From NCBI GenBank assembly GCA_045837725.1, contig JBEWZL010000082.1:1-50754 (forward strand): 50,754 bases of DNA. The letters run 5' to 3'. The notes under the pieces were generated by a model, which was not told the DNA's origin, did not search any database, and saw only the letters and a list, made by a program, of their open reading frames with translations. This document shows positions 1 to 39,116 of the stretch, piece after piece. Within the stretch, counting starts at the first letter, position 1; every line of letters begins with the position of its first letter. This DNA comes from Vermamoeba vermiformis (Eukaryota). Position numbers and translations under genes: made by a program.

Positions 1-1
1 C

Positions 2-160
2 TGTAGTGAGTCGTCCGAGTAAATAATGAGGCGTGGTATTCAGTGTAAGATAAGGCTTAACAAGCCTGATTTTTATTTAGGTATACAAATACAGTTTATC
101 AACCGACGGAATCACATCTGTGAATCCGCAGCACGTGGAGTGTAGATCTACTCCACTACA
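2..160 (-). repeat. 3' LTR (159 bp)
   Basis: TGTAGTG...CACTACA terminal inverted repeat; base-for-base identical to 6512-6670; minus-strand AATAAA. Confidence 0.97.
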
Positions 161-175
161 TTCCTCCCTTCTTTT
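161..175 (-). promoter_or_regulatory. Polypurine tract (PPT)
   Basis: Minus strand AAAAGAAGGGAGGAA directly abuts the 3' LTR. Confidence 0.9.
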
Positions 176-205
176 AATTGCTCCCCTATATTAGAGTGGT
201 CAGCT

Positions 206-3200
206 CTATCTTCGACGCTGTGCGTCTTGAATCTCGACGTCAAATGTCTCTTCGAAATTTGCTAGACACGTTCTTAAAAAGTCAATGAACTCGTCATGAT
301 TTTTAAGAGCGGTAATTTGTCTTGCAAAATTTCTTATTCTGTTACTACCGGTAATATTAGGTGAAGTAAAGATATTCTTTAATTCCTTTTTGACAGGTGC
401 TATATTTAGCGACGGATCCTTATCACGATATTGAACATAAACGTCGACAAGAGCATTATATAGCTCCTTTTTATGTAAAGGTTCGTTCCACGTTTCAATA
501 AACTCTGATTTCGGAATTTCAACCGGTGGATTTGGTGCGATATTTTCAGAATAGAATTGTGGTAATTTTTCCTTTACTGGTTCGACTTTATTCTCTACCT
601 TAGGGTAGTGAATATCATGTATTCGGCGTTTAACGTCCTTAATTAGAGGTTTTAATTCGTTGTTATTCATTTCCTCCCTTCTTTTAGTTAATGATGCTTT
701 TAACGCCTCTAGTTGATCAATATTACCAGATTCATCTATAATTTTGCGAATAATATCGCTATCCGATAATATTGGTTCATAATCTGTCATTGGAATATCG
801 ACGAAATTCGGATCTGGTACTGGAACTATGTCCTCGACCTGATTCGTAATTTCGCGCATTACTGGTAGCTCTACGTATTGTTTCTCTCCTCTTTCAACGG
901 CAGGGTCAAAACTGTCGTTCTCGTGTAATGAGACGAATTCTTTAGGAGTACCAAGCACTGAGGTACACGGTTTTAGGCGGTCTACGTGCACTGTCTGCTT
1001 GAGTGTCGTACCATCTGGTTTCATTAATCGATAGTTAACGGGACCTACTATCTCTTTAATCCAGTACGGTCCTGACCATGGTATACTAAGCTTTAATTTA
1101 GGTGCGTCAACACCTCGTGCCGGCCAGTAAAACCACACTCGTTCACCCAACTCGTATGAAACATCTCTTCGATTAAGGTTATAGTACTCCGTCTGTCTTT
1201 CACGAGCGAGTTTGAGTCTATTCGAAACATCTGCGTGCATGTTTTTAATTCTTTCCTTAATGGCTTCGAGACCATTCTTACTACTCGTTAACAATTCTAA
1301 TGACACATCGGGAAACTTAAAGTCAACCAATGGGCGCGGTGAATATGTTCTTAATAACTCGAACGGCGAGTAGCCAGTTGAGGTATGTGGTGTGTCTCGG
1401 TATGCGTATTGTACGAAGGGTAAGAACAAATCCCAATCACCTTGGTTGTCATGTACGTACATCGATAGCATTACGCACAACGTGTGGTTAAACCTCTCAG
1501 TTAAACCATTAGTTTGCGGATGATACGATGTCGAAGGAGCATGTTTCACTCCTGACGCTTCAGCTAGCGCCTTAAATACTTGACTCATGAATTGTGAACC
1601 ACGGTCGGAGATTATTCTCGACATGGGTCCATATTCTAACAACACTTTCAAGAATTTCTTCGCTACTGTTAACGCAGTAATATCTTTTAAGCGGAAGCAA
1701 ATAGGGAATTTCGTAAAATAGTCAGTGAAGACTAGAATGTATCTATATTTACGTGGTGTCATCGGTAACGGTCCGAGAATATCAACTCCTACTATATCGA
1801 ACGGGTGTTTCGCTTCGATGGCTTGCATTTTTCCTGCTTTCAAGACTCGTGGGGTCTTCTTAGCGATACACTTTACGCAACTGCGCACGTGATCACTAAT
1901 TGATTTGTACATTTTCGGCCAAAAATATCTTGATGCGATCAAATCGAATGTCCTTTGAATACCTTGATGGGCACCCAATGGATCATTGTGGAAATAATGC
2001 AATATTTCTTCACGATACTGTTCTGGTACTACGAGTCGAAGTCCAGCTGTCACTGAATGTTTTCGTTGCGGATAGTATCCGTGATACAATACTCCATCAA
2101 CCATGCAGTACAGTTCTGATTCAACTAGTATTCTCTTTGCGACGCGTCTATTATTGGGTAAGTGATCGTCTTTCAGATACGCAATAATTTTTCGCAATGT
2201 ACGATCTTTGCTTTGCAATTTTGCTAATTCCTTCGGATCAACAGTATCAGCGAATGTATCGTAGGATTGAATAAGGTTAACGGGTAGTCTTGATAACCCG
2301 TCAGCGTTTGCGTTCTGTGCTCCCGGTCGCGCTATCACGTCAAAGTGATAATCGCTCAGTGTCATTCTCCATCGTGCGACTCTACCGTTATGATTTTTGA
2401 ACGAATCAATATGCTCTAACGGTTTGTGATCAGTCATCACGACGAATTTCTGACCGTATAAGTACGCAAAAAAAAAAAAAAAGTGTTTAATACTCTCGAC
2501 CATTGCTAAACACTCTCGTTCCATGATAGCGTATTTCCTTTCACTATCGGAGAATTTCTTTGAGAAGTACGCGATGGGATGTTCACTATTGTCGTAGTAT
2601 TGAGTTAATACTCCTCCCATCCCATAGTCACTCGCATCCACTTGTAGAACGAACGAAACGTTCAATCTTGGGTACGCAAGGACTGGTTGTTTCGCTAACG
2701 CTTTCTTTAACCTGTTAAATGACCGTCTGACATCACTATCAATACAAAAAGGTGCATTCTTACGCAATAATTCGGTTAACGGTCGACTTATGCTGGCATA
2801 ACCACGAATAAATCGCCTGTAATAACCTGTCATTCCTAGAAATGCTTTGACATCAGTAACGCTTTGCCATAAATCGATATCTAACTTGTTAATCGCTTCA
2901 ATCTTTGTCGGATCTGGCGACACGCCGTTGAAATCAATCTTATGTCCTAGGTACGTAGTACTATCTTCACCGAACGAACACTTGGAACGTTTCAGTTTCA
3001 AATTAGCGTTTCTTAGTCTATCAAATACACATCTAAGATGGACCATGTGTTCTTCGAAAGTTCGTGAGAAAATCAAAATATCATCGATATATACGAGACA
3101 CATTTTCCAATTCAATCCTGCTAGTACCAAGTTCATTAAACGTTGGAATGTCGCTGGCGCATTCGTTAGGCCAAACGGCATCACGTTATATTCGTAAGAG

Positions 3201-4780
3201 CCTTCCTCCGTTATGAAAGCTGTCTTTTCTTTATCTTCTTCAGCTACTGCGATTTGATAATAGGATTGAACCAAATCGAGCGTAGTGAAATATTTCATGC
3301 CATCAAGACGTTCTAAAACATCTTCGATGCGCGGAATTGGGTACACATCTTTCTTCGTTACGCTATTCAGCTGTCGATAATCGACGCAGAATCGTTTAGT
3401 ACCGTCTTTCTTTTGTACTAGCAGAATTGGACTAGACCATGGTGAACTCGATGGTCTTATAATACCAGCTTCGAGTGAGTCTTGTATATACTTCGATACG
3501 AAAGCCTTTTGACTTATTGGCGTCCAATAAGCTCGTTGTTTGCGAGGTGGGCCGTCAGTATAAATTCTATGCGTAACTAGCGGCGTAGTTGATCTAATAT
3601 CAACGGAAAACAGATCTTTATATTCCTCTAGGAATTCGATCATGATCTTTCTCTGTTCTTCTGTTAACCGTTTCGCAATTCCCGAACTAGAAGGTTCATC
3701 AACCGGCTTGGAATTAGAATGGGCGTCTTTGATAGAGGTTACCCTCTCATTCGAATCTTTCAAACGCATTTTCTCAATTTTCCGAGTCAGTTTCAGAACT
3801 TTGCGTCGAATCTTACGGGGCATATCATCTGGTGATTTATCACTCTTTGATGTATCTACGTAAGCAGAATCAGTATTTCTACTATCATCAGTGGTTTTGA
3901 CACTGTTCGACGAATCATTCGGCTTCGCAGCATTAGTCTTTTCTTCAAGGGCATTGAGCGTCAGAGCCTCTCCTTTCTCATCGCACCATATCTTTACATT
4001 ATCTGACGCATATGCTATTGGTAGATTGCCCGAGATACTCAAACAAACGTTATGCGAAGTATTGGTGATAAAGACATCGACGTAACCATCTTTGACAGTC
4101 CGTAATTGCAATGGTACTTGTCCATGTGAGAGTTTGAACTTCGTCGATTCTATCAAATAATCACCATCTTTAACTACACCTTTAACCTTTGCTTTCACGT
4201 TCATTCCTGAAAGCGGTTTAATTACAGCTCGTTGTACTGACATTACGAGTTGACCAGGCGGTTCTACCAACGCCGTAGTCACTCTGTTCGATGTTCCCTT
4301 TAGCACCTCGTCGGCCTTATCACTTACACCGGGTCGACTAAGCTCCTTTCGGGGCCAGATAACCTCGCCTTCGCACACAATGCGAGCTCCAGCAGCATAG
4401 AGTACGTTAGTCCCAATGATAAGTGGGAACGAAATTTCGGGTACGTACAAAGCGTACACTCTGATTGGCGTTGCCACCAATTGGATTGTGATATCCACGA
4501 ATCCTTTGACGGGCATTAGCTCGTCGTTAGCGGCTTTAATCATATGCCCGCTATCAGTAGAAGTCACGACCAAGTTCAAAGAGTCAACAAGCTTTTTATT
4601 TATCACTGTTACAGCAGCACCAGTATCGATAAGAGCTCTCGGTACTGTGCTTCCATTCACGACCACTTTCGCTTCAGCGACATTGCTAACAGTGCCTTTT
4701 GGAACAGTTATCGTTGACAAAGTCGCGACAATGAAAGGGTTGTCTTCGTCAGTTGACTCTTCTGACTCGGTCGAATCGAG
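206..4780 (-). CDS. pol: Pol polyprotein: aspartic protease, reverse transcriptase, RNase H, integrase with GPY/F motif and C-terminal extension
   Basis: LIDTGA (PR); RFCVDYRQLN, MPFGLTNAPATFQ, YIDD (RT); VDASDYG, TDHKPL, NANADGLSR (RH); HHCC, SDRGSQF, NGLTERFN, WSGPY (IN). The frame is open from 4780, directly after the gag stop; the ORF track's 4720 start is TTG. Confidence 0.96.
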   Translation of the reverse strand, partial: LDSTESEESTDEDNPFIVATLSTITVPKGTVSNVAEAKVVVNGSTVPRALIDTGAAVTVINKKLVDSLNLVVTSTDSGHMIKAANDELMPVKGFVDITIQLVATPIRVYALYVPEISFPLIIGTNVLYAAGARIVCEGEVIWPRKELSRPGVSDKADEVLKGTSNRVTTALVEPPGQLVMSVQRAVIKPLSGMNVKAKVKGVVKDGDYLIESTKFKLSHGQVPLQLRTVKDGYVDVFITNTSHNVCLSISGNLPIAYASDNVKIWCDEKGEALTLNALEEKTNAAKPNDSSNSVKTTDDSRNTDSAYVDTSKSDKSPDDMPRKIRRKVLKLTRKIEKMRLKDSNERVTSIKDAHSNSKPVDEPSSSGIAKRLTEEQRKIMIEFLEEYKDLFSVDIRSTTPLVTHRIYTDGPPRKQRAYWTPISQKAFVSKYIQDSLEAGIIRPSSSPWSSPILLVQKKDGTKRFCVDYRQLNSVTKKDVYPIPRIEDVLERLDGMKYFTTLDLVQSYYQIAVAEEDKEKTAFITEEGSYEYNVMPFGLTNAPATFQRLMNLVLAGLNWKMCLVYIDDILIFSRTFEEHMVHLRCVFDRLRNANLKLKRSKCSFGEDSTTYLGHKIDFNGVSPDPTKIEAINKLDIDLWQSVTDVKAFLGMTGYYRRFIRGYASISRPLTELLRKNAPFCIDSDVRRSFNRLKKALAKQPVLAYPRLNVSFVLQVDASDYGMGGVLTQYYDNSEHPIAYFSKKFSDSERKYAIMERECLAMVESIKHFFFFFAYLYGQKFVVMTDHKPLEHIDSFKNHNGRVARWRMTLSDYHFDVIARPGAQNANADGLSRLPVNLIQSYDTFADTVDPKELAKLQSKDRTLRKIIAYLKDDHLPNNRRVAKRILVESELYCMVDGVLYHGYYPQRKHSVTAGLRLVVPEQYREEILHYFHNDPLGAHQGIQRTFDLIASRYFWPKMYKSISDHVRSCVKCIAKKTPRVLKAGKMQAIEAKHPFDIVGVDILGPLPMTPRKYRYILVFTDYFTKFPICFRLKDITALTVAKKFLKVLLEYGPMSRIISDRGSQFMSQVFKALAEASGVKHAPSTSYHPQTNGLTERFNHTLCVMLSMYVHDNQGDWDLFLPFVQYAYRDTPHTSTGYSPFELLRTYSPRPLVDFKFPDVSLELLTSSKNGLEAIKERIKNMHADVSNRLKLARERQTEYYNLNRRDVSYELGERVWFYWPARGVDAPKLKLSIPWSGPYWIKEIVGPVNYRLMKPDGTTLKQTVHVDRLKPCTSVLGTPKEFVSLHENDSFDPAVERGEKQYVELPVMREITNQVEDIVPVPDPNFVDIPMTDYEPILSDSDIIRKIIDESGNIDQLEALKASLTKRREEMNNNELKPLIKDVKRRIHDIHYPKVENKVEPVKEKLPQFYSENIAPNPPVEIPKSEFIETWNEPLHKKELYNALVDVYVQYRDKDPSLNIAPVKKELKNIFTSPNITGSNRIRNFARQITALKNHDEFIDFLRTCLANFEETFDVEIQDAQRRR

Positions 4781-6487
4781 TCAGTCATCTCTCTTTCTCT
4801 TTCCAAGGTAAGGGCGATCACGATCATCATAATGACGATCTTGGTGACCTCCGCGACCTCCTTGGCCATAGCCATCACGGCGATCTTGGTGTCCTCCGTG
4901 ACCACCTCGACCTCCTCTGCCACCTCTGCCACCTCTGCCGCCTCTACCACCGCGAGTACCGGTTCTACAGTCTCTCGCGAGATGGTTCCTGCCGCCGCAC
5001 TTGAAACAGACGCCTGCATTTCGGAGTGCGTTAAGCATCTCAACGAAGTTAGGCACTGCATCTGTCTCATCTTGTTCCGTGTAGACTTCAAGTTGCGGTT
5101 GAGGGGCTTGCACGACGTTCACCTTGGCGGGGGCTGGAGCTGGCGCGTCGATGAGCTTGAGGTTCTCGTGGTCAACGACCCATTGTGTCATGGCCTCGTA
5201 GGACTCGAGTCGATCCAGGTTGAGTTCAGCTTGGGCACGCATCGCTGGCGGTAACTTGTCCAAGAGTAACAAGATCTTGGTTTGTTCGTCACAGTCAGCA
5301 TGGTGAATGAAGCAATGGTTGAACTCGGCGATGAAGATCGGCGCAGATCGTCGTAGATCCCAACGATAGTTGCGAGCAGCTTGTTGAGCGTGCATTCTAT
5401 TGCCAGGTGATGGATAGGTTCGCAAGAGCCAGTTCGCAGCTTGCGTGATTGAAGCAGTATTCACGTCATATCGAGAATTAAATAACGCTCGTGGAGCGTC
5501 ATCCAGGCATTCATGAAAGAAAACCACTTTCTGTCGATCCGATAAATGGTTTGACGTGCATATGCTCAGAAAGTTCGTTAACCAAGTCTTCGTGTGCCCG
5601 TTGTTGGTCTCGGGGTTGAAGATTTTAAGATTCTTTGCCTTTCTTGCTTGATCAAGACTACTGGATTTCTCCGGTGGTACAAAACCTTGCGCAAAAGGTT
5701 GAGAAGCTGGTTGGGGTTTCTTTGGACTCGCTTTTGGAGTAACAGGGACAGGTCTTTCGGTTTCTCGAGTTGCATCCAAATTCGCGGTTAGATTCGCGAT
5801 CTGACTGGCGACTCTACGGTCCACCAATTCTTCTAAATTTCGAGAATCAAAGGAGCGACTTTCAACATCCTCTCTCCACAAACGTAAAACATCATCAACG
5901 GTTAAATCAGCATCGCGTGATAAATCGTCGATGAAATTTCGTACGGAATTTGTCGGTTGGCCTGTAAATTGATTAACCGTCTGGGAGTTATCCCTTCTGG
6001 ATTCACCAAATATAGGTCCTTTCTTCGCGGGTGTCTTTGGCGGAGTCACCTTCGCGTTAGGTGTTTCGGCACCAGATTTGGCCGTCGATCTGGGTGGAGT
6101 ACTCGTCTTAGGTGCAGACGCTGGCGTAGTAGTTGTCTGACGATTCTCTTGTTGTTCTCCACCGGGTTGGCGACGCGTTGCTTGATCATACGTTGCTGCA
6201 AAACCTTGTTCAAGCTCCTGGCGGATCTGATTCAGTTGCTCCTGCAGTACGTTGTCGATGTTCATAGGCTGGCCGTTATTATTGTTAACACTTGTGTTGA
6301 TTGCAGCAGGCTCAACTTCCATTGACTCGATGTTGACAGGCGTGTCATCGACGTCATTGTGAACAGTTGTGGCAGTCAGTGTAGGCGGATCAGCAGTTGG
6401 TACTTCAGCAGCAGGAACGGTTCTTCTATTTCCCCTCCCTCTTCCTTTGGCGGGAGTCTTAATGTGCGGAGATGTAGCGCGAGACAT
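4781..6487 (-). CDS. gag: Gag with CCHC zinc knuckle and RGG-rich nucleocapsid tail
   Basis: CFKCGGRNHLARDC knuckle, (RGG)n tail, capsid-like central region; first ATG at 6487 (the ORF track's 6511 start is TTG). Confidence 0.93.
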   Translation of the reverse strand: MSRATSPHIKTPAKGRGRGNRRTVPAAEVPTADPPTLTATTVHNDVDDTPVNIESMEVEPAAINTSVNNNNGQPMNIDNVLQEQLNQIRQELEQGFAATYDQATRRQPGGEQQENRQTTTTPASAPKTSTPPRSTAKSGAETPNAKVTPPKTPAKKGPIFGESRRDNSQTVNQFTGQPTNSVRNFIDDLSRDADLTVDDVLRLWREDVESRSFDSRNLEELVDRRVASQIANLTANLDATRETERPVPVTPKASPKKPQPASQPFAQGFVPPEKSSSLDQARKAKNLKIFNPETNNGHTKTWLTNFLSICTSNHLSDRQKVVFFHECLDDAPRALFNSRYDVNTASITQAANWLLRTYPSPGNRMHAQQAARNYRWDLRRSAPIFIAEFNHCFIHHADCDEQTKILLLLDKLPPAMRAQAELNLDRLESYEAMTQWVVDHENLKLIDAPAPAPAKVNVVQAPQPQLEVYTEQDETDAVPNFVEMLNALRNAGVCFKCGGRNHLARDCRTGTRGGRGGRGGRGGRGGRGGHGGHQDRRDGYGQGGRGGHQDRHYDDRDRPYLGKRKRDD

Positions 6488-6499
6488 GTTGAGATTCGT

Positions 6500-6510
6500 C
6501 GGGCGCACCA
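6500..6510 (-). promoter_or_regulatory. Primer binding site (tRNA 3' end complement, possibly tRNA-Gly)
   Basis: TGGTGCGCCCG one base after the 5' LTR; TGG pairs with tRNA CCA. A GCG-initiated acceptor stem with discriminator A fits eukaryotic tRNA-Gly (inference). Confidence 0.8.
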
Positions 6511-6511
6511 A

Positions 6512-6670
6512 TGTAGTGAGTCGTCCGAGTAAATAATGAGGCGTGGTATTCAGTGTAAGATAAGGCTTAACAAGCCTGATTTTTATTTAGGTATACAAAT
6601 ACAGTTTATCAACCGACGGAATCACATCTGTGAATCCGCAGCACGTGGAGTGTAGATCTACTCCACTACA
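6512..6670 (-). repeat. 5' LTR (159 bp)
   Basis: Identical to 2-160; followed on + by GTACC, the candidate target-site duplication (base 1 = C agrees). Confidence 0.97.
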
Positions 6671-6969
6671 GTACCAAGCAAGATCTGCGACAAGACGAAG
6701 CCCTGGTGAACCCCTCGAAAGAGCGCGAACAAACACTCGTGAGCAGGCAAGAAGGCACGGAGTTAGCCCATAAATTAGGCGCCGTTGCCTACCTTGAGTG
6801 GTAAGTGCAGTGTCGTCGTTCCTATTGTAATAGTCATAACTAATTAGCACGTAGCTCTTCATTGACGCAAAGTGGTGTTAAAGAAGTGTTTGAAACGGCG
6901 CTCGCTGCCTCTGTCAAGATGAAAAGGCTGACTGGACAGATCCGAGACCGAGAGTGTGCCATGATGTGA
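6671..6969 (+). pseudogene. 3' half of a Rho/Rac-family small GTPase gene interrupted by the retrotransposon
   Basis: (G)TKQDLRQDEALVNPSKEREQTLVSRQEGTELAHKLGAVAYLEC / intron 6801-6854 GTAAGT...TAG / SSLTQSGVKEVFETALAASVKMKRLTGQIRDRECAMM*: G4 TKxD, G5-like ECSS, Rho insert and CaaX box. Confidence 0.9.
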
Positions 6970-16933: not shown

Positions 16934-19900
16934 TTACGACTGAGGGCCTAAAGCCTGGATTTCAGACTGTTGCGGATGATCCATGGAGTGACCGTTGGGC
17001 AGATCAGATTGCGTAGTTTCAACAACGTAAGTAGTCGTAGTAGATTGTTGATGGGATCTATCCGTCAGCGAGTTTCTATCCGTTGTCACACGCGGCGAAA
17101 CAAGGCCACTGGCGCCAATATCGTTCAAGTACGAGAGCCTGTCGCTCGGGAAGAACGGCGTCACGAGATTCTTCATGACTTGGTTCTTGAGAGGGGTCTC
17201 AATAGGAACCAAAGGAGCTTTAGAATCGGGTGTTGGGTTGGTCATAACAGCGCTCGTATTGTTGGTGCTCATCGGGGTTGTGCTGTTGACTGGAGTCACG
17301 GGAGCGGAGGCAGAGACTTGAGGAGACTGCACGGACAACTGAGGAACACCAGTAGGCTGCACAACTGATATATTGGGCATTGTTTGCACGACTTGAGGGT
17401 TGGGAGGAGCAGTCACGACAGGCTGAGGCACGAAGTGTGACGGCATGCTGACGTGGGGTTGCATCGAGACACCAGCAGCCAACAGCTGTTGTTGTTGAAG
17501 CAATTGTTGTTGCTGCAATTGTTGGAGTTGTTGCAATTGAGGGTTCTGCTGTTGCAACTGAAGTTGAGCCAGCTGTTGTTGCAATTGCGCAACTTGCAAG
17601 GGCTGTTGCATCATCATCGGTTGTTGCTGAGGAACACCGAGTTGAAGCAACTGAGGATAGAGCTGCAACAAGGTTTGCAACGGGATCGTCGTGCCGTTGG
17701 GCAGAGTAACTTGCTGTTGCAATTGTAATTGAGGTGCCAAGAACAAAGCATTGAGCAAGTTCTGATCGAGCTGCACTTGAGGTTGCGGCTGCTGAACGAC
17801 TTGTTGACCGGTGTACTGTTGTGCTTGATTGGGGTCCACAACTTGCTGAGGCACTTGTACAGGTTGTTGCACTTGCACGGGTTGCTGAGTTACTTGCTGT
17901 GTGTACTGTTGCGTGGCAAACTGTTGGGCCTGGTTCGGATCAACAACTTGTTGGGGCACTTGTACAGGTTGTTGCACTTGCACAGGCTGTTGAGTCGGTT
18001 GTTGAACATAAGTCTGACTGTTGGATTGCATCATTCCACCAGGAGTCATGAGCATTCCTGGTTGAATCACTGCAGACGACCGCCGAGAACCTTCGCCTGC
18101 TGAATGGTAAGGAAGTCCCATCAGCTGTTGGGCCAATAGATTTTGATCGATAACGGGTTGTTGAGGTATTGTCATAGGTGTCTGTACAGGTAGAGGTTGG
18201 TTGATAATGGGTTGTTGGATCATGCCAGGCTGAATGACGGGCTGTGCAATTGGCTGCGCAATAACAGGCATAGACTGGATGGAAAGCTGTCCGCCAGCCG
18301 GGTTCGAGCCACGAAGCTCGGGTGTGTTAAGGCCAGATCCAGGTACTGAAGTTGGCAAAACAGGCATCGAAGTCGGTTGTCCCATAACCATAGGCTGTTG
18401 AGGAATGTTGACTTGAGGTTGCAAAACCATGCCTGCTTGCGTGGCTTGAACGGGCATCGAGGTAGGTGCCATTCCTTGATTAGAATTCATGTACGTGTGG
18501 AACGCGGATCTTGAAGTATCAGGAGATCCGACGTGACTGCCACCGTTACCAGTGCCTTGGCCAGAAAACGACGTGGAAGGAAGCATCATCGGCGGGGAGT
18601 TAGGCAAGTTCATGCCGTTCAAGGCTTCGTACATCTCAGGTGAAGTGAAGAGGCCTTCAAACCTGCGATCACCTTCCAGCATGACTGACCTGCGCTGTTT
18701 CTTGCGTTCTAGCTCTTGAAGTTCGTAGTTTTGTCGCTCTAATAATGCTTGGATTTGACCTTCTAAAACCTTTCGCTCGCTGTCGTGCTTTGATTTCAAT
18801 TCTTCTGCGATTTGGCCACTGACTTCGAGAGGGGCGATAGAACCAACTACTTGGACGGACATGCGCTTGAGAGCCTTATCGTCAATGTGAGTCATGCGAG
18901 GTGTAAGAACCTGAGCAAGGCCAGCACTCAAATGCTTTTCACGCGTCGTGAGCTCGTGTTCCGGTGAGGCGGCTGTGCCAGATTCAGCGCTGCCAGTAGG
19001 CTCTTCGGGTACAGCAGGGTTGCGAGCAGCGCTATCCAGAGCGATGTTTGGCCTTGAGGGCGAGGCTGTAATATGGAAATCTGTCTTGGAAGTCTTGCGG
19101 AAATGACGCTTGATTGTGCCTTCGCCAAGTGCACGCTTGACGCTCGCTTGTTTGCGAACCCACTCATCAACACGGTTCTGAATGTAGCTAGATACCTTGT
19201 TAGTGTGTTGTTCTGGCAGACCGAGCTCGTGGATCAATTCGATAGCGACTCCAGTAGCAGTATCAGTGAGCAAGTGGAACTCGAATTCGATATCAATAGT
19301 CTTCTCGGGTGTTGTTAATCTGAGCTTCATGGGAATAGTGAACATCGCTTCTTGCTTCTTGTCGTCGTCTCCCATGTCGGAAGCGGCGTCGTCAATGTTG
19401 TTTCTGACTTCGGTCTTGAACCGAGGAATGACAGGTTGAGAAGTCTGTCTGCGTAAGTTAGCTTGACGCTTCTTGGCCAAGCTGTCTTCAGACTCGGGCT
19501 GAAGTGTGTCCAACGAGAGGTCATCGTCAGAGTCCTCTAAGTATGTATCCAAAAGCCGTGATGGAGGCCCACTAGTGGACAGAACTGCTGTAGCAGGATT
19601 CAAGCTTGGCAGATTAGGATTCTGACTTCGGCTAATGAAGCGCGTGCGTTTGGTTTCCTTCTTTTCAGAGGTGCCAGAGCCAACACTTTGATTGCTTGTC
19701 TTTCTTGACGGAATATCGTCGAACTCATCATCGTAGGCTGTGATTGGCACGGGACTCTCGCCTCTGCTACCAGTCCTGCTGACTGTTCGGCTACGCGACG
19801 CTCTGATATCCAAATCCGCAGAGCTGTTGAAGTCATCGTCTGATGTCAAATCGTTGTCACTGTATTCAGAATCAATTCCAGAAGACGAGTTGTTTCCTCG

Positions 19901-21639
19901 AAGAGGCGGTGACATTGGCTTAGTCATAGACACAGGGCGCGAGGAACCCGAGGACCCTGATTGCTTTGGTGTGACCAAGAAGTTGGCTGAAGTTTTGTCG
20001 TCATCCGATGAAGGGCTCATTGGAGCTATGTCGGTAGCTGTAATTGTAGGATCAAAGGTCATAACTGCAGGATCTTGTTGAGCAAGCCAGGCGTCAATCT
20101 CTTCGTCAGATCGCATGTCCAACAATCTGTCATTCTTGTCGTCATCACTGCAGGTCAGGAACGGGTGTCGAAGCAATTGTGCGGCTGACTTTCTGTCACG
20201 AGGGTTTGTTAAACAGTCCAACAGGAACTGAAACACTTCAGGGTCTTTGATTCTAGCGAGTGCGCGAGGTCTTTGGCCCTATAAGAAGTACTTTAATACC
20301 TACGCTCGTGCTAGCACTTCGAAAAAATGAAATTTTCTTACCGAAGAAACTTTCTTGAAAATTGATGCTGGGTTCGAGCATTCGCTATAAGGATATTCTA
20401 GCGTGACCATCTCTAAGACTGCCATGCCAAAAGCCCAAATATCGACTTTTTCGTTGTATTTCTCTTCGTAGAACTCTGGAGCCATAAACTCGGGTGTACC
20501 AATGATACTGAGCGGGGCTTGAACTGTAGCAATGGTAGCTAAGCCCAAATCTCCGATTTTGACTTCGCCGAGCGTGCCATTAATGAAGATATTGTCGCAC
20601 TTAATATCACGATGAATAATGGGAGAGGGACGCGTGTGCAAATAATTGAGGCCTTCTAGAATTTGAATGCACCAATTTTTGATTACGCGCAGCTTCACTT
20701 TTGTCGCCTTTCGAATAAACCTACGCACGGAACATGATTAATATGATTGCAACACCGAATAATTCCACGCCAAGCTAAAAGTTGTATCGAAAATTCGCTT
20801 TGGTAAACTTTTGGTAAAAAAGTTCAGGTCTTGCAAAAAAAATTGCAATTCCCTATCGGGACCAATTTAATTTTAGTACTATAATTACAGAAATTTGAGA
20901 ATTATATTAAAGAATAAGAGTACTTACTGCCTTAAAGTGCCTGAGGTCATGCACTCTGTAATGAAATTTAATTGCAATTTTTCTTCGTCGACCCAAGAGT
21001 GGTAGAAAATGATAATATTAGGGTGATTGAGCGATTGTAGCAATTGGATCTCTTTGTAGAGCTTGTCAAGATCCACGGAACGTGATAACTTGATTTGATT
21101 CCATGCTACTTCGAGTCCTCGATCACGATCAATGGCTCGATAGACGATCTTCGAAGCGCCACGGCCAAGTTCATCATTTCCCTATTTAACGCATAGGTAT
21201 TAGTATAAAAGAATAATATAGAGAATAGTAAATGAAATTACAGTCAGAAATTACAAACAAAAATAATTTTTCATTAACGAGGCGCAATCATGCAATTATC
21301 TTGAAATTTGGCTTTGTATCGTGCAATATGCTATAATTGAGTAGTATATTATGATTTTATATCGAAGTCTTTAATAATTTAATGAATAGTCCTTCGATCG
21401 AAATTAGTGATCAAAAAAAACCGTTTGTGTAACGGGATTTGCTCTGAATATTTAAATTATATCCCTAATAAATTATATACGAACACATTTTGTCCAATTC
21501 GTGCATACTATCGATTGTACAAAGCCATTTCGATTGCTTCGTAGCAATCCAAGAATAAAAACGACTAGCTTACCCTAACATAACGACCAGTAGGGTCTGT
21601 TTCAACAACTTGGTCTTGTCCAGAATCTGACTGGGACAT
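16934..21639 (-). CDS. WNK: WNK-family Ser/Thr kinase with long disordered Q/P-rich tail
   Basis: [18 protein letters not shown] (Lys in subdomain I), [37 protein letters not shown]-like motif [23 protein letters not shown]. Confidence 0.95.
17816..17995 (-). repeat. Internal tandem duplication in WNK (105-bp period)
   Basis: [25 protein letters not shown] encoded twice with synonymous differences. Confidence 0.9.
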
Positions 21640-27344: not shown

Positions 27345-28746
27345 TTACAACATCAATATGATGCCACTAATAGTCAACAGCAAAGAAAGGTAGTTCGTTA
27401 CGTGAGTTACGTCGCTTGTCCTTGCTTTCGGCACGTTAGAGTTACCTTGAGGCGAGCTTGATGACTGAGGAGCAGTTGTTTGAGGACTTGCAACATACGG
27501 CGCTGATTGAGGTATTTGTTCTAATATCATTCAATCGATTAACACTAACTCGTGCATAAAGTTAATGCTGTTGCTGCTCGACTTACCAAAAGAACCGACG
27601 CGAATGAACCAAATGTTACTGCTTGCCAATGGCTGCATCACAAACACATTGAGACCAGGTACGTAAAGAAACCGCTTGTTGATGCCTGATCCAGAGCTGG
27701 GCGTAGAGGGTGGTGTCGCAGATCCCTCAGTCAAAGGCAAAGTACTCATTTCCCAACCATCACTGCCATCATTCGGAGTGATGACGTAGATACGTCCGAC
27801 CGAGGAGAGCTGGCCATAGTAGAACAGAAAGCGGTCATTCACGGGATCATAGTCCATGGCAGAGTACGTTGGAGCTTCGGAGATGAACAGATCCAGCGCA
27901 CTACTGTTTTTGAAAGTGACTTTGTACTGCGTGTCACCAGGGTTGAGTGGAATACGCGACGCTTGCACGCCTAAATCCGTATCATAGCCTTGACCGTCTC
28001 CGAACTCCAGTGTGAAAAGTTGATGACGACGCGTGTCATGTGCCCATGGCCAGCGTGCAAAGATGTTAGCAATCTTGGTGATTGGGTTTGTCAACTCTTT
28101 CTTCTCCAAATCAATACGAGTCAAGCTGTTGGCCCAAATGATGCTGCTGTTGGTTTCACGAAGTACTCCGTATCCTTTAGTGATGTTTGGCCAAGTGTTT
28201 TGCGGATCCCATTGATTCGTGTCAGGATTGAATCCGTCAATTGTGGGAAAAGCCGTACCACTTCCAAATACACCGTAGGCACCACATAGAATAATTCTAT
28301 TGATTGCAGGAACCCACATGCTGTGTTGATAGTTGTGGCGAGAAGAAGGCAAGCCATCTTTATAGTAGGCCACGTCTTCAACGACAAACTCTTGGGGAGT
28401 TGGCTGTGCGCGCATGATCCACTGTGGCTGATCGTCTGTCAGCTTAATGGAGACAACTCGATTATCATGAGAGTCATGATGACCACCGTTAGCAACGACG
28501 AACAACTCCGTGGTGTCTTCTCGAAGAACGAAGCCACCCCAAGGATCAATTGCTGCTCCTCCAGCACCGCTCGTGCCGTTGATTTCAAACCATTGATTCA
28601 TTGGCTTGCCTGCTAACCATGCTGGTTCGGCGGCCTAACAATGGTTTGAGGTAATATTCAAATGCCAATGTGGGAAAGTTGGCACTTACCGAAGTAGCTC
28701 CAACGACAGCGAAAAGAAAGAGAAGGAAATACAACCTTGAAAACAT
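27345..28746 (-). CDS. Secreted, predicted GPI-anchored beta-propeller-like protein, paralog 1
   Basis: Signal peptide MFSRLYFLLFLFAVVGA; exons 28746-28690, 28634-27587, 27520-27345; S/P/T stalk and hydrophobic C-terminus; GGHxDSxDN and DGLPSSRHNY motifs. Confidence 0.85.
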
Positions 28747-28992
28747 CAGAGCTGATTCGTGTTCGCGGAATGGAATTTAATATATTAAAGACCACGAGTA
28801 TTTATGGCTAAATAAGGGACGGGACAGGCCTGTCCCCAGGGGACGTTGGATTGAAATTTCACCAGAGTGTCACCGATCGATCAACAGTCATCACGGTAAC
28901 CGACTCACAAATCCTAATATAATCGTTCATTTATTAGCGTATTACAAAAATAACGTCATTTACTAGTACATAAAATAATAATGGCTCGGTTT

Positions 28993-30380
28993 TTAGCTCA
29001 TTAAAACGAGACTGATTATCACTACTATCACTGATAGGTAGCTCATAACGGCAGAAACATCGCTCGTCCTTGCTTTCGGCACATTAGAGCTTGATTGAGG
29101 AGAGTTCGATGACTGAGGAGCAGTTGTTTGAGGACTTGCGACATACGGCGCTGATTGAGGTATTTGTTCTAACGCCAATTAATTACTACTAACTCACTTT
29201 ATGATGACAGTAGTGTCTTGACTTACCGAAAGAACCAACACGAATGAACCAAATGTTGCTGCTCACCGATGGCTGCATCACAAACACATTGAGGCCAGGT
29301 ACGTAAAGAAATCTCTTGTTGACACCAGCCCCAGGAGCGGAGGGTGGTGTCGCAGATCCGTCGGCCAAAGGCAAAGTGCTCATTTCCCAACCATCACTGC
29401 CATCGTTCGGAGTGATGACGTAGATGCGACCAACAGAGGTAAGTTGACCGTAGTAGAACAGGAAACGGTCATTCATAGGATCGTAGTCCATGCCAGCGTA
29501 CGTTGGGGCTTCGGAGATGAACAGATCCGTTGTGGAGCTGTTTTTGAAAGTGACTTTGTACTGCGTGTCACCAGGGTTGAGCGGAATACGTGCGGCTTGA
29601 ATACCTAACTCGGCATTAAAGCCTTGACCGTCTCCAAATTGCAGCGAGAAGAGTTGATGACGGCGCGTGTCATGTGCCCATGGCCAGCGTGCAAAGACAT
29701 TGGCAGTCGTGGTGATTGGCTTTGTCAACTCTTTCTTCTCCAAATCGATACGAGTCAAGCTGTTGGCCCAAATGATGCTGCTGTTAGTTTCACGAAGCAC
29801 TCCGTATCCTGAAGTGATGTTTGGCCAAGTGTTTTGTGGATCCCATTGATTCGTGTCAGGATTGAATCCGTCAATCGTCGGAAAGGCATAGGCAGATCCG
29901 TACACGGCATAAGCACCGCACATAATGAGGCGATTAATTGCCGGGACCCACATGCTGTGTTGATAGTTGTGACGAGAAGAAGGCAAGCCATCTTTATAGT
30001 AGGGCACGTCTTGAACGACAAGTTCCTGGGGAGTCGGCTGTACGCGTACGATCCACTGTGGCTGATCGTCTGTCAGCTTAATGGAGACAACTCGATTATC
30101 ATAAGAGTCTCCATGGCCGCCACTGGCAGCGACAAAAAGCTCCGTAGTGTCTTCTCGAAGAACGAAACTGCCCCAAGCATTCAGTGCTGCTCCGCCAGCA
30201 CCGCTCGTGCCGTTAATTTCAAACCATTGATTCATTGGTTTGCCTGCTAGCCATGCTGGTTCGGCAGCCTAATTTATTGATATCATTAATATTTAGTTAA
30301 TTATTTAATTCAAAGTTGGGACTTACCGAAGCAAATCCAACGACAGCAAAAACAAAGAGAAGGGGATATAACTTTGCCAT
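28993..30380 (-). CDS. Secreted, predicted GPI-anchored beta-propeller-like protein, paralog 2
   Basis: Same 3-exon layout; highly similar to paralog 1; signal MAKLYPLLFVFAVVGFA. Confidence 0.85.
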
Positions 30381-36686: not shown

Positions 36687-39116
36687 TTAGTGAGGGTATC
36701 TAGGATCGTGGCGGCGCTTTCTCTCGGGAGCCTTAATAATTTCATCGATACGCAAAATCATTTCAGCGGCTTCAGCGGCAGACATCAAGATCTGCATCTT
36801 AACCTTCAAAGACTCCTTAATGCCCATGCTGGCCATATCACCGATCTCTCCGGTCTCCATGTTCAAACCAGCGTGCACCTTGCCTTCGTAGTGGGCAGCC
36901 TTCAATTGAGAAACCAATTCTGAGCTGTCGTAACCAGCGTTGTCAGCCAAAATCGTAGGGATCATACGCAAAGCTCTGTATAACATCATTAGTATTGAAG
37001 TCGATTGATAGATCCGATCCGATCTTATTTTTTCGATTACATTCTACAACATTGTAGATGTTAAAATGTGGGAGTACCGGTACATACCTAGCAAAGGCTT
37101 CAATAGCAAGCAATTTCTTGCCCGGGGTTTTCTTGGCCAACTCTTCGACAGCTTGGGCCATGATCGATTCAACGCATCCACCACCGTACACGGTGCGAGT
37201 TTCTTTAGTGGTTTGGGTCAAGACGCACAAAGCATCGTGCAATGATCGCTCAGCTTCGTCTAAAATGTGCTTAGTAGCACCGCGCAAGACGATAGTGCAA
37301 GCCTCGCCGCGTTCAACACCGCTGAACTTGATAACCTTGTCTTCACCAATCATAATCTCTTCAATCAATTTGCAGTGACCGAGCTTGACACGTTCAGGGT
37401 TGTCGAAGGTAGAAACGATCTCACCACCAGTGACAAAGGCGAGACGCTCAATGCCTTCAAAGTCAGCGTGTTCAATGGCCATCACGCCGTGATCGGCGAA
37501 GTATTGTTCGGGCAAGTTGTAGATCAACTGTCTGTTGATAAAGCAGTTGATTTGATGGTTGACAATCTTCTCGCACTTGGCAAGCATGCGGTCCTAAGGG
37601 AAACAATTCTGTTAGGCGGATTCGGCATTGAATTTTCTAGATCACCGTTACATGAATTTTGTTATTATAAATAATATAAAGTGCACGTATATAATAATTC
37701 AGCATAGCTTTTGTAGTCAACTTACACGCTCAGCCTTCTCAATCTTAGCCAATTCAGCGGGCGAATCCACTTGGACCTTGGCACTGTAGATCTTGACTTT
37801 ATCGCTGTCCATAGCAGTGTTGGCCAACAAAATCTTAGCGTTTTCAATACGCTTAGGTTGACCGACACCGATCTTCTTCTCCAAAATAAAACCTTCGTCC
37901 AAGAATGAATCTTCTAATGAACCACCAACCTTCTTAATAATATGAATCATTTGTAAATCAGTGCTGCCCTTCAATCTCATCACTGCATCGACGGCCAACT
38001 TGGCGAAGTGGTCCATGTGAGTAGAGTTCTGGCCCAAAATCTTCGAGCCCAAAGTAGTACGAGCGATCTGCAACAGATCTTGTTTGAATTTTTCTGTTTA
38101 AGAAGAACCGTTAGTATATTAATAATGCTATTGCAATATTAAGCCACAAAAGTCCAACTCTCTATTCGATACAAGCAGATCTAGATCGTGTAACACGTGT
38201 GTTTGCGTACCTTTATCTGAAGAGTTATCAGTAGAAGACTTGACCAAAGCCTCGCGAGCAACATCGACGGCCATTCTCCAACCTATATTGATAATATTAG
38301 CACATTCGCTCGTATTACAAGCACGGAAAAATTGACGGATGTGACCTACCTTCGATGATGGTTTGAGGGTGGATCTTTTGGAACATAAGCTTCTCGGCTT
38401 CACGGAGGAGCTCACCAGTCAATACACAAACACTGGTAGTACCGTCACCGACTTCATCGTCTTGTGTTTTAGAAATATCGACCAAGATCTGCGATCGAGC
38501 GGTCAGTCTTGTTAAACGATAACAAGTAATTTTTATGATCGTAGAATATCCTTATATGAATATTCGTGATCGCTTGCAAATGTTTGTCGAGACTTACCTT
38601 GGCAGCAGGATTCGAAACGTGAATCGACTTCAAAATGGTAGCACCGTCATTAGTAACTTGAAGTTCATTGAATCGAGCGCCATCACTGGAGGGTTGCAAA
38701 ATTTTATCCTGCATGGTATTAGTTAAATTGGTTGTTATACGCCTTTGTCATAATAAATCCAGCAGAAAAATTATTCGCTGTAAATTAATAAATGAAGCCA
38801 GAAAAATATGCTTACTTGTCCTTTCGGTCCCAAAGTGGTTTTCAAAAGGTCTGTAACGGCAAGAACACCAACAAACAAACGCTATCAATTATAAAAAATT
38901 ATTATCAGCTCGATCCAATAATTATTATTCAAATCTCTCGTACGTTTCGTGCTTCCTCTCCCTTCTCTTCCTTAGTATCTTGTTGGAAAATGTTCACTCC
39001 TCCTCCTTGGGGAACGTTATCCTCTCTGCTTTGAAATTGCTCCTGATGCAGATCGGACAGTTAGTATCGGATTCATTCGATAGCTTCCGTCCAATTATTA
39101 ATATTACCTCCGACAT
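36687..39116 (-). CDS. CCT2: T-complex protein 1 subunit beta (CCT chaperonin)
   Basis: [74 protein letters not shown]. Confidence 0.97.

Follow-up and report, generated by a model that had tools for sequence, protein, structure and literature searches.

Introduction

Several Ty3/gypsy retrotransposons carry an in-frame stop codon that separates gag from pol. In Tj1 of Schizosaccharomyces japonicus, and likewise in Tcry1 and Tosmo1-3, the two genes are reported to be separated by a TGA that is in frame and forms part of a conserved GAA TGA CT (PMC10085805; bioRxiv 10.1101/2022.12.06.519325). Removing the stop codon is reported to have abolished transposition of Tj1 (PMC4600332), and Skipper of Dictyostelium is cited as an in-frame-stop retrotransposon (Leng et al. 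1998, as cited in PMC10085805). Here, we analyzed a 50,754-nucleotide stretch of DNA from Vermamoeba vermiformis (GenBank assembly GCA_045837725.1, contig JBEWZL010000082.1, positions 1 to 50,754 of the forward strand), hereafter called the window. A complete 6.67-kb long terminal repeat (LTR) retrotransposon of the Ty3/gypsy type occupies positions 2-6670 on the minus strand. An initial annotation of this sequence had proposed that its gag and pol are joined by a programmed readthrough signal, in the form of a leaky stop codon inside a hairpin, in an active element. We conclude that the locus is the gag-pol junction of a young Ty3/gypsy-type element that probably makes Pol by programmed stop-codon readthrough.

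As described for Tj1, Tcry1 and Tosmo1-3, the window element has the order protease (PR), reverse transcriptase (RT), RNase H and integrase, a frame shared by gag and pol, a single TGA-CT and a pol without its own AUG (PMC4600332; PMC10085805). It thus joins a published layout that is already known from these elements, and the statement in the initial annotation that readthrough is rare in retrotransposons was too strong, given that all of them share it. There are also differences. The codon before the stop is GAC here, whereas GAA is strictly conserved in Tj1, Tcry1 and Tosmo1-3. Those elements have been placed with Tf1/Tf2, and Tj1 is reported to self-prime (PMC4600332); the window element, in contrast, has a TGG tRNA-type primer site by inspection. 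It also lacks a Pfam chromodomain and carries a different conserved C-terminal module. The comparison with Tj1 is one of published descriptions.

Short-context readthrough has been described for cellular genes as well. In reporters tested in Ustilago maydis and HeLa cells, UGA followed by CU is reported to have been enough for efficient readthrough; the first two bases downstream of the stop had the largest effect, and readthrough in HeLa cells was stimulated further by A as the third base (PMC4207609). With the U. maydis Tpi1/Pgk1-type genes and the human LDHB and MDH1 genes, which carry UGA-CU(A), the window junction shares UGA-CU, a context for which no downstream structure is reported to be needed (PMC4207609). 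It differs from them in its third base (C, not A) and in that the product is a polyprotein rather than a peroxisomal targeting extension. Moloney murine leukaemia virus (MoMLV), a gammaretrovirus, similarly has one stop between genes in the same frame and sets its Gag : Gag-Pol ratio by leaky termination. In MoMLV, the stop is described as a UAG followed by an 8-nt spacer and a pseudoknot (PMC13517186), whereas the window has a UGA with no significant 3′ structure and no Rfam match. Finally, Tca2 of Candida albicans also has an in-frame UGA between gag and pol, but it is a Ty1/copia element, of another superfamily, and is described as having a putative 3′ pseudoknot (PMC2194720).

The gag-pol junction

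Positions 4789..4760 of the minus strand read GAT GAC TGA CTC GAT TCG ACC GAG TCA GAA. The in-frame TGA (4781..4783, minus strand) closes gag and is followed by CTC, which places it in a UGA-CU context, as read from the sequence and compared with published contexts (PMC4207609; PMC10085805). It is the sole stop within the 2093 codons that gag and pol span in their common frame. Behind it lies an acidic Ser/Thr/Glu/Asp linker of 20 codons, LDSTESEESTDEDNPFIVAT (4721..4780, minus strand), which contains no ATG, GTG or TTG; the earliest such codon downstream of the stop is a TTG at 4720. The protease motif DTGA corresponds to pol residues 52-55 (4627..4616) and is preceded by no methionine, the first in-frame methionine of pol being residue 80, past the active site at residue 52. 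The upstream boundary of the pol open reading frame (ORF) is the gag stop itself, and gag and pol do not overlap.

Because the two genes share a frame, are separated by one TGA and have no AUG before the protease site, a Gag-Pol fusion needs readthrough and not a frameshift. The initial annotation had argued the same from the common frame, the single TGA, the C at +4 and the lack of an AUG, and its description of the shared frame, the junction letters, the 20 open codons and the lack of an ATG before DTG holds; the strand, which it had left unstated, is the minus strand. It had also called UGA followed by C leaky, in line with the match of TGA-CT to the experimentally defined leaky context reported in PMC4207609. 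The full 8-mer GAA TGA CT of the fission-yeast elements is absent from the junction, where GAC stands upstream.

Two other ways of decoding the TGA were considered and rejected. Selenocysteine recoding would call for a selenocysteine insertion sequence (SECIS), and an Rfam search of positions 1-6800 at E ≤ 5 returned neither a SECIS nor a readthrough element, only a chance FinP match elsewhere. A reassigned code with TGA as a sense codon is excluded, because TGA occurs just once in 2093 codons and the standard code leaves long host ORFs open; the stop of the host CCT-beta gene in the window is TAA, which is uninformative on the use of TGA as a stop.

A 136-codon stop-free stretch in another frame (4708-5118, minus strand) overlaps the 3′ end of gag and the junction. 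It probably arises from the GC-rich repeats coding for RGG; its end is at 4708, and it does not continue into pol.

Conservation of the gag stop

Relatives of the junction were collected by an exhaustive HMMER search of 1.84 billion representative proteins with a 420-residue query, in which the stop was written as W at position 280. The query gave 67 matches, of which 18 reached E ≤ 1e-10. These strong matches divide into nine that cover the gag side only and nine that cover the pol side only (starting at query positions 299-322); none of the 18 crosses position 280. Six weak matches (E ≥ 2.3e-5; P0147, P0156, P0159, P0157, P0160 and P0168) have their best stretch across that position. Three of the six were read. 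Two of them, P0147 and P0156, are rich in Gly and Arg and lack a protease; in the third, P0159, which represents a distant element, gag and protease are fused.

Six of the nine gag-side proteins were read (P0122, P0124, P0125, P0126, P0127 and P0129), the fragments P0123, P0128 and P0132 being left out. They are 40-52% identical in the search and 35-43% over the full alignment, and all six stop 0-9 residues past a shared LGKRKRDD-like motif. The gag ends listed are RDD, RDDY, RED, RDADD, RDEA, RDDP and RDDAYERDDA, each followed directly by the stop. The motif itself (LGKRKRDD, 4784-4810 in the window; also in relatives P0122-P0129) is a basic-acidic sequence located right before the stop, after a variable RGG/Gly-Arg tail, and may serve for nuclear localisation or as a site of protease cleavage.

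The pol side gives a corresponding picture. A second copy of the element, P0002, matches at 989 of 996 aligned pol residues (99%) and differs by substitutions, by an indel of 3 residues and by a frameshift late in the sequence. The gene call of P0002 begins exactly at the TTG that matches the first start codon after the window TGA; a stop must therefore lie upstream in P0002 too, as the ORF would otherwise continue into gag. The closest other pol relatives (P0003, P0005, P0006, P0010 and P0019; 42-61% identical) are pol-only calls that start shortly before the protease, except for P0006, which starts after it. Judged at the protein level, a stop at the end of gag appears to be a family feature and not a private mutation. 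The frame layout, the TGA-CT context, the lack of an AUG before the protease site and, at the protein level, the conserved gag stop can all be read directly from the sequences.

These matches bear on the alternative that the stop is a nonsense mutation or sequencing error of this copy in a family that normally has a single gag-pol ORF, the junction being a lesion. The initial annotation had raised this objection itself. Single-ORF Ty3/gypsy elements do occur among the distant relatives (loci L001 and L010, described below, and the fused gag-protease of P0159), and the same copy has another oddity, a run of 15 T in pol. Yet a private lesion would not account for six of six gag relatives ending at the same motif, for the absence of any junction-crossing protein among the 18 strong matches, or for a 99% identical copy whose call starts at the same TTG just past the stop. 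Moreover, the stop falls in the short stretch that links the gag tail to the protease and that makes up an estimated ~3% of the coding length, and it does so in the specific TGA-CT context. We regard a copy-specific lesion as very improbable and, at the protein level, as largely refuted.

A wider background was obtained by scanning prokaryotic genome contigs. A scan with the gag family alignment yielded 23 pattern matches, none of which was confirmed. A PR-RT alignment, run against the same collection, found 14 Ty3/gypsy loci in contigs of metagenome-assembled genomes (MAGs), with 40-51% RT identity. Ten of the 14 have both gag and pol. In eight of these, pol is in the −1 frame (L002, L003, L004, L006, L008, L009, L012 and L013); the remaining two are single ORFs (L001 and L010), and none has an in-frame stop. 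This agrees with the remark in the initial annotation that frameshifts and single ORFs dominate in Ty3/gypsy elements. The 14 loci represent the wider Ty3/gypsy background and are not members of the window gag family. L001-L013, together with L014 (a 271-bp contig of a Candidatus Glomeribacter gigasporarum assembly), are eukaryotic Ty3/gypsy fragments in bacterial-labelled assemblies or MAGs, and are most likely contamination from a host or an environmental eukaryote.

The eight −1 loci are what could be said for a further alternative, in which the family uses ribosomal frameshifting and the in-frame layout of the window results from an indel near the junction. Apart from the fact that these loci lie outside the window gag family, several features of the junction argue against such an indel: the pol ORF is bounded upstream by the gag stop and has no overlap with gag, the LTRs are identical, and the P0002 call starts at the same TTG. 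A frameshifting family with a locally altered layout is, in our judgement, highly unlikely.

A hairpin that contains the stop codon

The TGA lies within the 5′ arm of a hairpin (4762..4784, minus strand), in which CUGACUCG (4784..4777) pairs with CGAGUCAG (4769..4762) over 8 bp around a 7-nt loop. This stem, which the initial annotation had pointed out, is present and is the predicted minimum-free-energy structure, with −12.3 kcal/mol and z = −3.65; none of 200 dinucleotide shuffles folds as well. The 6670-nt sense strand contains two perfect 8-bp hairpins whose loops measure 3-10 nt, compared with 0.94 ± 1.09 in 200 mononucleotide shuffles. Folds as stable as the hairpin are found at four distinct sites (five with the LTR counted twice) among 6641 sliding 30-nt windows. 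The chance of such a fold falling on the stop is roughly 1-2% by a post hoc estimate, and the co-location is statistically suggestive.

The position of the hairpin is difficult to reconcile with a role in decoding. Relative to the U of the UGA, the 5′ arm covers −1..+7 and the 3′ arm +15..+22. With the UGA in the A site, the 5′ arm would be inside the ribosome according to the geometry given in PMC13517186, and the stem would therefore be melted at that moment. Since the stem is open when the UGA is decoded, the hairpin cannot act like the known 3′ stimulators. Structure-stimulated readthrough, as with the gammaretrovirus pseudoknot or the 3′ stem-loop of alphaviruses and coltiviruses, would involve a stable fold at least ~8 nt 3′ of the stop. 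No such fold was found, and the sole strong hairpin contains the stop. The best downstream alternative is a 5-bp stem of −4.9 kcal/mol with a z of −0.25. The complementarity of the two arms arises because TGA-CTC is the reverse complement of GAG-TCA, which encodes Glu-Ser, a pair repeated in the acidic linker. We conclude that the hairpin is real and locally unusual, and we assign it no decoding role because it is unwound before the UGA reaches the A site.

The hairpin could nevertheless be a functional part of a recoding or regulatory signal, either by making ribosomes pause some codons ahead of the stop or by switching its pairing with the GAGUCA / CUGAC motifs, which are duplicated just downstream. 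Its rank among only four distinct equally stable sites, the failure of all shuffles to match it and the coincidence of one of the two perfect 8-bp hairpins of the element with the stop would fit such a function. The wrong geometry, the weakness of the downstream 5-bp stem and the explanation of the complementarity by codon choice in a repeated Glu-Ser linker do not, and we consider this function unlikely. A more specific version has, in our estimate, a slimmer chance still: the stop-containing hairpin would be a conserved cis element of the family that modulates readthrough or expression, either through a ribosome pause some four codons upstream or by refolding with GAGUCA / CUGAC after its 5′ arm has been drawn into the ribosome, in an uncharacterised Ty3/gypsy lineage that also has a conserved KRKRDD gag end and a non-chromodomain C-terminal module. 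If this were true, the stop-in-stem geometry would be undescribed among known readthrough stimulators; a new question opens only if the stop-embedding hairpin proves to be conserved.

A proposed readthrough model for Pol expression

We propose that ribosomes would initiate at the gag AUG (6487) of the full-length RNA, and that the majority would terminate at the UGA (4783-4781) and release Gag. A minority would decode the UGA by a near-cognate tRNA, UGA-CU being a poor termination context. These ribosomes would stay in frame and proceed through the acidic linker into protease, RT, RNase H and integrase. The product would be a 2093-residue Gag-Pol that is then cleaved by the protease. The occurrence of readthrough, its efficiency and the residue inserted at the UGA are points that we infer rather than observe.

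Several observations weigh against this model. At the third position past the stop there is a C and not the A reported to stimulate readthrough further in HeLa cells (PMC4207609), and the upstream codon is GAC, as opposed to the GAA conserved in the fission-yeast elements. Folds starting 12 nt past the U of the UGA have z values of −0.10, −0.03 and −0.25, none of them significant; given the lack of significant 3′ structure, readthrough efficiency would depend on the short context alone. The relatives are known from protein only, which displays the end of gag, while the pol frame, the TGA-C and the stem are seen in this copy alone. The start of P0002 is a decision of the gene caller and not a direct view of the stop. 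In addition, this copy may be inactive, because a T15 run in the RNase H coding region (2468..2482, minus strand) puts FFFF in place of the Arg that is conserved in the RNase H motif HFRxYLYG, giving HFFFFFAYLYG compared with HFRxYLYG in P0002 and all relatives. The run may be a copy-specific in-frame expansion or a homopolymer assembly artefact.

A final point of this kind comes from Tca2, the junction of which, taken alone, is reported to have given no readthrough in S. cerevisiae reporters, where an internal (cryptic) promoter was found that drove expression downstream (PMC2194720). A gag-UGA-pol layout alone is therefore no proof of readthrough. The Tca2 reporter result also lends weight to the alternative that the stop is genuine and conserved, but that Pol comes from a separate transcript, made from an internal promoter or by splicing, or from non-AUG initiation or re-initiation downstream. 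The TTG 20 codons past the stop would be available for the latter. However, no AUG lies ahead of the protease active site, TGA-CT is a leaky context proven by experiment (PMC4207609), and the authors of the Tca2 work nevertheless concluded that, in Tca2 itself, translation of the gag-pol RNA yields Pol (PMC2194720). An intron that removes the stop was sought among 51 in-frame GT..AG candidates, a number that arises by chance; none has a host-like donor (GTAAGT, GTAGGT or GTAAGC), a result that argues weakly against the spliced pol mRNA considered in the initial annotation, as only 4-5 host introns were seen. The junction region is also GC-rich, whereas host introns are AT-rich. Taken together, we consider a separate transcript or downstream initiation to be unlikely.

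Readthrough of the UGA remains the reading that we prefer. Of the earlier proposal of a programmed readthrough signal in an active element, the readthrough is indirectly well supported; a contribution of the hairpin is not supported, since the stem would be melted at decoding, and the activity of this copy is called into question by the T15 run.

Architecture of the element

The element is bounded by two direct LTRs of 159 bp that are identical at 159 of 159 positions and have TG...CA termini. The 5′ LTR (6512..6670, minus strand) reads TGTAGTG...CACTACA and is 100% identical to positions 2-160, which form the 3′ LTR (2..160, minus strand). The element abuts the window edge: its 5′ flank is GGTAC, and its 3′ flank is the single base G left in the window past the LTR. 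A putative tRNA-type primer binding site (6493..6510, minus strand) starts with TGG one base past the 5′ LTR. A search of the window for tRNA genes found none, and the assignment of the primer binding site as TGG-type is by inspection only. The polypurine tract AAAAGAAGGGAGGAA (161..175, minus strand), likewise read by inspection, abuts the 3′ LTR. The identical LTRs and the open frames suggest a recent insertion.

The gag gene (4784..6487, minus strand) starts with the ATG at 6487 and encodes 568 residues, which comprise a conserved capsid-like core, a CCHC zinc knuckle, an RGG-repeat tail and the terminal LGKRKRDD. Pfam places zf-CCHC in gag, upstream of the TGA. The pol gene (209..4780, minus strand; TAG at 208..206) encodes 1524 residues with protease, RT, RNase H, integrase and a conserved C-terminal module. 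The Pfam domains of pol are, in order, Asp_protease (residues 38-125), RVT_1 (455-615), RT_RNaseH (708-811), Integrase_H2C2 (918-976) and rve (992-1088), and an integrase SH3/C-terminal domain was also found after the integrase core. The PR-RT-RNase H-integrase order, the flanking direct LTRs, the CCHC Gag, the primer binding site and the polypurine tract are those of Ty3/gypsy elements (Metaviridae).

The Pfam scan of pol detected no chromodomain. The C-terminal module (~236-508, minus strand) occupies the last ~100 residues, after the integrase, and is conserved in P0004, P0005, P0006 and P0010, with the consensus ...KKxLYNALxxVYxxYR...IAxVKKxLKxIFSSPNVT...RIxxFxxQI...NHDxLIxFLRxCLxxFEEIF. 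It has no Pfam match and gave no usable Atlas lead. As it sits at the position of the chromodomain in chromoviruses, it may be a targeting domain.

Other features of the window

The host gene for CCT-beta (TCP-1 beta) lies at 36690-39051 on the minus strand. It has AT-rich introns of ~60-90 nt with GTAAGT, GTAGGT and GTAAGC donors and ends with a TAA stop. It served as the splice-site reference for this genome. Spliced eukaryotic genes are present in the window. A fragment of CCT-beta shares 96% identity with a transcript-derived protein; its best named matches, at 75-77%, are proteins of Filamoeba, dictyostelids, Lingula, Capsaspora and chytrids, and are thus scattered across Amoebozoa, animals and chytrids.

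A gene of ~360 residues is present as a tandem duplicate at 27385-30268 (minus-strand ORFs 27531-28634 and 29189-30268), with 84-90% nucleotide identity and a spacing of 1634-1648 bp. It matches no Pfam family; only weak, bacterial-labelled Atlas clusters of kelch/beta-propeller-like character were found, with recognition below threshold. Finally, an open frame of 1114 residues (16934-20278, minus strand) is very rich in Gln and Pro and includes a 105-nt tandem repeat (79% identity) at 17802-18004.

Discussion

Our analysis has a direct consequence for annotation: gag and pol of this element are to be joined as one readthrough product, rather than annotated as a pair of genes or a pseudogene. 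On the readthrough reading, the element represents an independent Ty3/gypsy lineage among the few retrotransposons in which a leaky UGA-CU stop, in place of a frameshift or a single ORF, determines the ratio of Gag to Gag-Pol. Its host, judged from the CCT-beta matches, is no fission yeast. The junction lends support to the idea that the short UGA-CU context acts as a readthrough signal in eukaryotes generally and has been co-opted by mobile elements more than once.

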